NCBI RefSeq assembly: GCF_003334765.1
Contig: NZ_QOWT01000055.1
Origin: Escherichia coli
Lineage (GTDB): Bacteria > Pseudomonadota > Gammaproteobacteria > Enterobacterales > Enterobacteriaceae
Strand: one strand, 5' to 3'
DNA: 13,955 bases
The notes below the pieces were generated by a model. It was given only the letters and a program-made list of their open reading frames with translations, ran no database searches and had not been told where the DNA came from. Position numbers and translations under genes: made by a program. Numbering within the stretch: position 1 is the first letter of the stretch; the number at the start of each line of letters is the position of its first letter. This document shows positions 7,756 through 7,784 of this stretch, piece by piece.

Positions 7756-7784
7756 CAATGAGGGTTGCCGGGCAACCCTCATTG
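7756..7784. terminator. Perfect hairpin between convergent yoeF-like ORF and yeeX; possible bidirectional terminator
   Basis: CAATGAGGGTTGCC (7756-7769), G (7770), GGCAACCCTCATTG (7771-7784). Flanking runs are only moderately T/A-rich. Confidence 0.4.

Follow-up and report, generated by a model that had tools for sequence, protein, structure and literature searches.

The perfect palindrome that separates the yoeF-like ORF from tmaR (formerly yeeX) in Escherichia coli probably encodes a protective stem-loop at the end of tmaR mRNA, left as the terminus of a transcript whose synthesis is ended by Rho. We favour this reading because the mapped 3' end lies one nucleotide past the stem, no U-tract follows it, read-through beyond it is Rho-dependent, the RNA downstream is rut-like, and conservation of the hairpin is strand-specific. 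The palindrome occupies positions 7756-7784 of the window, by which we mean the whole 13,955-nt stretch of E. coli chromosome that was analysed.

A repeat search places the two arms at 7756-7769 (CAATGAGGGTTGCC) and 7771-7784 (GGCAACCCTCATTG): each is 14 nt long, they are 100% complementary, and a 1-nt spacer lies between them. A loop cannot be shorter than 3 nt, so the 14-nt arms give, as RNA or single-stranded DNA, a stem of 13 bp with a loop of 3 nt and an energy of -20.5 kcal/mol whichever strand is folded; 7 of the 13 pairs are G-C, so that the stem is GC-rich, like that of an intrinsic terminator. Folding z-scores are -5.6/-6.2 for the 29-mer and -4.7/-5.3 in a 61-nt context, and none of 200 dinucleotide shuffles folded as well. 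Perfect inverted repeats of 14 nt whose arms lie no more than 15 nt apart occur nowhere else in the window; 300 shuffles of the window produced none, and the analytic expectation is 8e-4. The first-pass annotation of this DNA had described a perfect 14-bp inverted repeat with a 13-14 bp stem at this place, between the yoeF-like ORF (7341-7697, plus strand) and yeeX/tmaR (7798-8127, minus strand), and had proposed a folding-energy calculation as a check. Its coordinates and pairing prove exact, its placing of the hairpin between these two genes is correct, and the calculation puts both strands beyond the reach of shuffled sequence. A near-perfect inverted repeat also lies inside the coding region of dacD (minus strand, 10438-10470), with 16-nt arms, 94% complementary and 1 nt apart (TTTCCTACGGTGCAAA / TTTGCACCGTAGTAAA).

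To the right of the hairpin the window carries tmaR, yeeA, sbmC and dacD, all on the minus strand; to the left is a CP4-44-type island with a dynamin-like gene, yeeS, yeeT, cbeA, cbtA and yeeW. TmaR is a polar sequestrator of PTS enzyme I. Its coding sequence (7798-8127, minus strand) specifies the 109-aa PTS regulator TmaR / DUF496, as annotated by RefSeq and as recognized by NCBIfam NF040881 (PTS_reg_TmaR; 188.5 bits, the cut-off being 170). A spacer of 13 nt (7785-7797) leads from the tmaR stop codon to the stem, and together with the hairpin and one terminal nucleotide it makes up a 3' UTR of 43 nt (7755-7797). On the opposite side the hairpin stands 58 nt from the stop codon of the yoeF-like ORF, a distance that is the same whether pduV is a relic or intact. 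Only the last 55 residues of that ORF (58-112) match the EutP/PduV profile, at positions 86-141 of 142, and the corresponding DNA (7512-7697, plus strand) is a relic of the C-terminal part of pduV, which was the neighbour of tmaR, convergent with it, in the ancestral arrangement. A small ORF, yoeJ, is annotated in K-12 between yeeA and tmaR. At the other end of the message, in the 5' UTR (about window 8128-8300), a preprint reports by RIL-seq and MAPS that the sRNA GlnZ contacts tmaR mRNA 60-80 nt upstream of the RBS, and that a TmaR-YFP fusion is unaffected.

All the experimental data on transcript ends used here come from K-12 MG1655, a different strain from that of the window. The K-12 hairpin (2078990-2079018) is identical to ours, the identity extending into the flanks for about 40 nt on the pduV side and through the tmaR stop codon on the other, and window coordinates were transferred from K-12. 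In Term-seq, position 2078989 of the minus strand is a 'primary' 3' end of yeeX, with read counts of 205828 and 66213 in two of the three yeeX entries listed (Adams et al. 2021, Supplementary file 1, PMC7815308). This position is window 7755, the C directly after ...CCCUCAUUG and 1 nt past the stem: the dominant end of tmaR mRNA at steady state is thus precise and immediately downstream of a stable stem-loop. A second dataset places the primary terminus at 2078985/6, 4-5 nt after the stem, with a signal of 0.88-0.98, and prints in its Supplementary Data 3 the same fold, at -21 kcal/mol and with a maximum U-tract of 2 (TRS 2023, PMC10687069). Also in that source is a minor terminus of the minus strand, at 2078892 and 97 nt beyond the hairpin; it corresponds to window 7658, just 3' of a weak stem (GCCUU...AAGGC), and may reflect read-through transcripts that are only partly trimmed. 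The curated K-12 lists of Adams et al. hold no plus-strand 3' end near the hairpin (20790xx), although transcription of the relic may be too low for this to be informative. Term-seq data had been named in the first-pass annotation as a way to check its terminator proposal; those published for K-12 put the dominant tmaR 3' end at the base of the hairpin in both datasets, and list none for the plus strand.

Further downstream the transcript is sensitive to Rho. DirectRNA-seq with and without bicyclomycin (BCM), evaluated in 800-nt windows, identified a Rho termination region at 2078833 on the minus strand, 156 nt beyond the hairpin in RNA that is antisense to yoeF (Adams et al. 2021, Supplementary file 2, PMC7815308). 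In untreated cells 248 reads upstream of this point fall to 25 downstream, and in BCM-treated cells 290 reads upstream are followed by 414 downstream, giving a Rho score of 14.16 (p = 4.5e-50; PMC7815308). Read-through is accordingly BCM-dependent, with the reservation that counts in 800-nt windows do not prove the source of the downstream reads: part of the extra signal under BCM could come from BCM-induced antisense promoters in the prophage remnant instead of from tmaR read-through. The peak, at window 7599, and the minor end at 7658 both lie inside a zone of untranslated RNA antisense to yoeF (7556-7754, minus strand) that is C-rich, G-poor and weakly structured, and which we infer from its composition, folding and Rho score to be where Rho loads and terminates. 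On the minus strand the first 200 nt beyond the hairpin have a C/G ratio of 1.73, as against 1.07-1.09 further on, a C-over-G enrichment of the rut-like kind; on the plus strand the corresponding downstream ratio is 1.0-1.1. Folding of the minus-strand RNA beyond the hairpin shows no excess over its shuffles (z = -0.8).

The position after tmaR was then compared across the family, using 80 tmaR loci, one genome per species, of which 74, the window included, were usable. A hairpin of -14 kcal/mol or better follows tmaR in 73 of these 74 Enterobacteriaceae loci, starting 0-19 nt past the tmaR stop codon in nearly all of them, with two outliers at 37 and 52 nt. What follows the stem varies. A T-run of at least 5 is found at 27 of the 74 loci, most of them with a symmetric A-tract/stem/U-tract arrangement (Enterobacter, Lelliottia, Leclercia, Silvania, Pluralibacter); the T-run is shorter than 5 at the other 47, which include all Escherichia, Salmonella, Kluyvera and Pseudocitrobacter and most Citrobacter. 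A convergent pdu gene tightly adjoins tmaR in Escherichia, Citrobacter and Salmonella, genera in which the U-tract is absent. Hairpins of Escherichia, the C. amalonaticus group and Salmonella have a common stem base, CAGTGAGGA.../...TCCTCACTG, and are homologous. In the locus of Salmonella enterica subsp. diarizonae (L048) the homologous hairpin (3346-3376) overlaps the last codons and stop of a convergent 300-aa GHMP-kinase ORF, with 33 nt between the two convergent stop codons. This ORF is PduX-like by position and size, its NCBIfam GHMP-kinase matches being sub-threshold, and the next ORF after it, of 404 aa, is acetate/propionate-kinase-like (PduW-like).

Alignment of 15 orthologous hairpins reveals how the stem has been maintained. 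Of the aligned cells 95.9% are paired, as against 33-55% in slid controls; 7 of the 13 stem pairs have changed on both sides, and none of 500 shuffles reaches the observed covariation. Departures from Watson-Crick pairing are unevenly distributed: on the tmaR-sense strand there are 14 G·U cells against 4 A·C cells, three of the latter at the loop-closing pair and one at the terminal pair, and the orthologues include the intermediate series GGG/CCC, GGG/UCC, GGA/UCC. The tmaR-sense hairpin stays between -18.6 and -21.6 kcal/mol in 15 of 15 sequences, while its antisense counterpart weakens to as little as -11.8; the difference in energies is significant by the Wilcoxon test (p = 0.017), for sequences that are not phylogenetically independent. 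The G·U asymmetry goes back to a small number of independent events, and a C-to-T bias associated with transcription could have exaggerated it. Preservation of pairing, together with G·U on the tmaR-sense strand, suggests selection on the RNA stem of the tmaR transcript; to judge from these alignments, selection appears to act there and not on a DNA palindrome or on pdu-sense RNA.

These results bear on several other roles that the palindrome might have, of which the most familiar is that of a terminator proper. The hairpin would then be a weak, non-canonical intrinsic terminator for tmaR, possibly bidirectional, with Rho as a back-up downstream, a scheme that we consider rather unlikely. The strong, GC-containing 13-bp stem only 13 nt past the stop codon would suit it, as would a moderately U-rich tail (CUCAUUGAUUCUUAU here; UUCAUUGAUUCUUUUCU in other Escherichia, where it is especially so), the canonical A-tract/stem/U-tract found at the same position in Enterobacter, Lelliottia, Leclercia, Silvania and Pluralibacter, and the sharp drop in coverage expressed by the TRS signal of 0.88-0.98. 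The 3' end 1 nt past the stem could be the trimmed product of termination a few nucleotides downstream, and the TRS dominant position, 4-5 nt after the stem, is in keeping with this. Against it, however, the longest U-run after the stem is 2, neither the tail on the tmaR strand (CUCAUUGAUUCUUAU) nor that on the plus strand (AAUAAAACGGGAAUU) contains a U-tract, the sequence upstream of the stem on the tmaR strand (GUUUUAUU) contains no A-tract, and a consensus terminator scan of the window did not call the hairpin. We scored the element with our own implementation of a d'Aubenton-Carafa-type score and based terminator calls on T-run length and d-score; a laxer rule (at least 5 T in 8 nt) was discarded as non-discriminating, having passed shortened sub-stems in other Escherichia. 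The T-score is 0.93 and the d-score -31.8 on the tmaR-sense strand, and 0.29 and -43.2 on the plus strand; the d-scores of the Enterobacter orthologue, by comparison, are +38/+14 and that of Leclercia +44. An intrinsic terminator should release RNA within a U-tract some 7-9 nt after the stem and independently of Rho, but the Term-seq end lies 1 nt past the stem, the Rho score just downstream is 14.16, and when Rho is inhibited downstream reads (414) outnumber those upstream (290). The bidirectional version fares worse: the plus-strand tail, AAUAAAACGGG, is without any U-tract, A·C mismatches in the orthologues weaken the plus-strand hairpin, and the K-12 3' ends listed at the site are on the tmaR strand only. 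The first-pass view of the hairpin as probably a bidirectional terminator is therefore right in that the hairpin marks the end of a transcript, that of tmaR, at its base, and wrong in mechanism and in symmetry: the U-tract is missing, read-through past it is massive when Rho is inhibited, and no plus-strand end is listed. Weak intrinsic termination and a Rho-type end-cap are not mutually exclusive.

The symmetry of the E. coli hairpin, a perfect palindrome which folds at -20.5 kcal/mol on both strands, raises the possibility that in strains with an intact pdu operon it also caps and stabilises the pdu transcript that ends with pduV, a function additional to that on tmaR mRNA and not exclusive of it. 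The hairpin's location 58 nt past the pduV stop in relic and intact contexts alike is compatible with such a function, as is the Salmonella homologue's overlap with the stop of the convergent PduX-like ORF. The comparative data point the other way: relative to the tmaR-sense hairpin, that of the plus strand loses 3 kcal/mol or more in 8 of the 15 orthologues, and its advantage nowhere exceeds 0.8 kcal/mol. Nor does the plus strand show C-over-G enrichment downstream (C/G 1.0-1.1), and no plus-strand 3' end is listed in K-12, which has only the pduV relic. On balance we regard capping of pdu mRNA as possible, though doubtful. A role at the level of DNA, as a palindromic operator for a dimeric protein or as a cruciform site, is extremely improbable. 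A perfect 29-bp palindrome would fit a dimer site, and covariation alone cannot tell a DNA palindrome from an RNA stem. What tells them apart is that the orthologues keep pairing and not sequence, other genera having entirely different stems at the same place, that the G·U intermediates are still able to form an RNA stem on one strand although the palindrome in the DNA is lost, and that the RNA 3' end maps exactly at the base of the hairpin.

The palindrome had also been taken to lie at the likely boundary between island and core, and hence to be possibly the relic of an attachment or recombination site, to be checked by comparing strains with and without the island. We ran this comparison by BLAST of window 7300-8300, with 5,426 complete E. 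coli genomes as the database. Where the context differs from that of the window, homology starts at window 7444, 7515 or 7524 (query breakpoints 145, 216 and 225), and from there rightward the sequence, hairpin included, is common to strains whose contexts differ. Mobile DNA thus meets the ancestral pduV-tmaR region in a junction zone at 7444-7524; to its left is an IS66-family transposase fragment (7300-7443, strand not assigned; yoeD in K-12), which in BLAST also matches plasmids, and the annotated end of CP4-44 in the K-12 record, 2078748, is window 7514. The left breakpoints of this island-scar region, 7444, 7515 and 7524, differ by lineage. The junction is at least 230 bp from the hairpin, to its left and within the pduV relic (yoeF). 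Strain 2022H048 has no island and carries instead a complete pdu operon whose last gene is an intact pduV of 147 aa, convergent with tmaR; in strain K71-77 cobU adjoins a pduV fragment, and in strain AH04 an IS110 element stands beside a longer pduV. Through these contexts—intact pdu without the island, cobU next to the relic, IS110—the hairpin is 100% identical. yoeF is the pduV relic, and some E. coli keep the whole pdu operon here while others have cobU beside the relic; this variation between strains in relic, pdu and cobU contexts indicates that the CP4-44-type island sits in the scar of a cbi-pdu deletion.

We accordingly give almost no credence to an origin of the palindrome as an attachment- or recombination-site relic of integration of a CP4-44-like island, and reject it on the four genomic contexts compared, in which the hairpin is independent of the island. 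Nearness to the mobile/core junction (about 240-310 bp) is all that speaks for it. The boundary itself is actually about 240 bp to the left of the hairpin, inside the pduV relic, so the hairpin is neither at the island/core junction nor dependent on the island; hairpin and flanks are identical in the island-free strain with full pdu and in the strain with cobU next to the relic; and the comparison of island-present with island-absent strains, run as suggested, contradicts the suggestion that it was to check. The palindrome is present in 5418 of the 5426 complete E. coli genomes, and homologous hairpins with compensatory changes occur in E. albertii, E. whittamii, Citrobacter and Salmonella. 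It is found in 1 to 4 places per genome, with a median of 2, and we read two places as the two strands of one palindrome at one locus; a strain with an asymmetric variant of the hairpin shows just one place. The left end of the island is outside the window, but a single locus per genome speaks against a second copy there. The hairpin is part of the core sequence between pduV and tmaR in the ancestral arrangement and is unrelated to the neighbouring island.

We return to the stem-loop as a protective end on tmaR mRNA, for which the following sequence of events can be envisaged. The ribosome would leave tmaR 13 nt ahead of the stem, and RNA polymerase would read past the hairpin and go on to make the unstructured RNA, rich in C and poor in G, that is complementary to the pduV relic. 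Rho would load on this C-rich RNA and terminate transcription within about 100-160 nt, after which PNPase and RNase II would trim the tail in the 3'-to-5' direction until blocked by the 13-bp stem. The outcome would be a precise, protected 3' end that sets the stability of tmaR mRNA. An extension to the pdu+ enterics (Salmonella, Citrobacter and some E. coli) is far more speculative, and we think it very unlikely: there the hairpin, having no U-tract, would stop neither polymerase, strong pdu transcription induced by 1,2-propanediol would continue across tmaR in antisense, tmaR transcripts would extend into the end of pdu, both mRNAs would acquire the same 3' cap, and propanediol catabolism would be coupled to the level of TmaR.

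A class of ends with these properties has been described. Dar & Sorek (2018, NAR 46:6797) found that Rho-dependent transcripts have precise 3' ends right after stable stem-loops, with low U, no A-tract and C-over-G RNA downstream, and that the stem-loops protect these transcripts from PNPase and RNase II. The tmaR hairpin has the features of that class as described there: its 3' end follows the stem, U-tail and A-tract are absent, BCM causes read-through, and C exceeds G downstream. Relative to the same description nothing essential differs, the tmaR stem being unusually long and perfect (13 bp) and its DNA a perfect palindrome; every property of the class, so described, that can be tested by sequence and published data is found at tmaR. 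Canonical intrinsic or bidirectional terminators resemble it in having a GC-containing stem-loop soon after a stop codon and between convergent genes, but the E. coli element differs from them in lacking U-tract and A-tract, in having its 3' end 1 nt past the stem, and in Rho-dependent read-through. REP/BIME elements are likewise intergenic palindromes at gene 3' ends, able to stabilise upstream mRNA against exonucleases, but they are a dispersed family, and the tmaR palindrome is found at one locus per genome; presumably it bears no resemblance to the REP consensus. Rfam gave no match anywhere in the window at gathering thresholds, and the only matches in 7600-7900 at permissive settings were miRNA-precursor-like hairpins, at chance level and far below threshold. 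The dispersed-repeat reading was rejected on the single locus and on the want of an Rfam family match.

The feature is real, ordinary and already known, its 3' end and fold having been printed in published genome-wide tables; our literature search found no dedicated study of the yeeX/tmaR terminator. What the analysis provides, of little import beyond correct annotation, is a precise function for the palindrome together with a 3' UTR and transcript end, the removal of a false lead on an island attachment site, and the placing of the right limit of the CP4-44-type island inside the pduV relic. The position after tmaR, with a U-less, Rho-type end-cap in Escherichia, Citrobacter, Salmonella and Kluyvera as against bidirectional intrinsic terminators of the canonical kind in Enterobacter, Lelliottia and Leclercia, is moreover a tidy natural example of turnover between two termination strategies.

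Variants of the locus were met in the course of the survey. One assembly, titled Chryseobacterium sp. 18061 (L061), contains a typical Enterobacteriaceae tmaR locus whose protein is 93% identical, and is probably mislabelled or contaminated. Within E. coli the perfect palindrome is not invariant, since strain 104 (L087, 301-353) carries a hairpin allele with one unpaired position, reading CACTGAGGG... on the plus strand as against CAATGAGGG.... In E. coli TUM9812 (L086, 1501-1640) an ISEc12 element (IS21-like, istA/istB) has inserted in the 3' arm of the hairpin, after ...GGCAACCCT, at about window 7779; the insertion parts tmaR from its stem-loop, and so constitutes a natural hairpin-disruption mutant, the only such case among the 30 matches listed.
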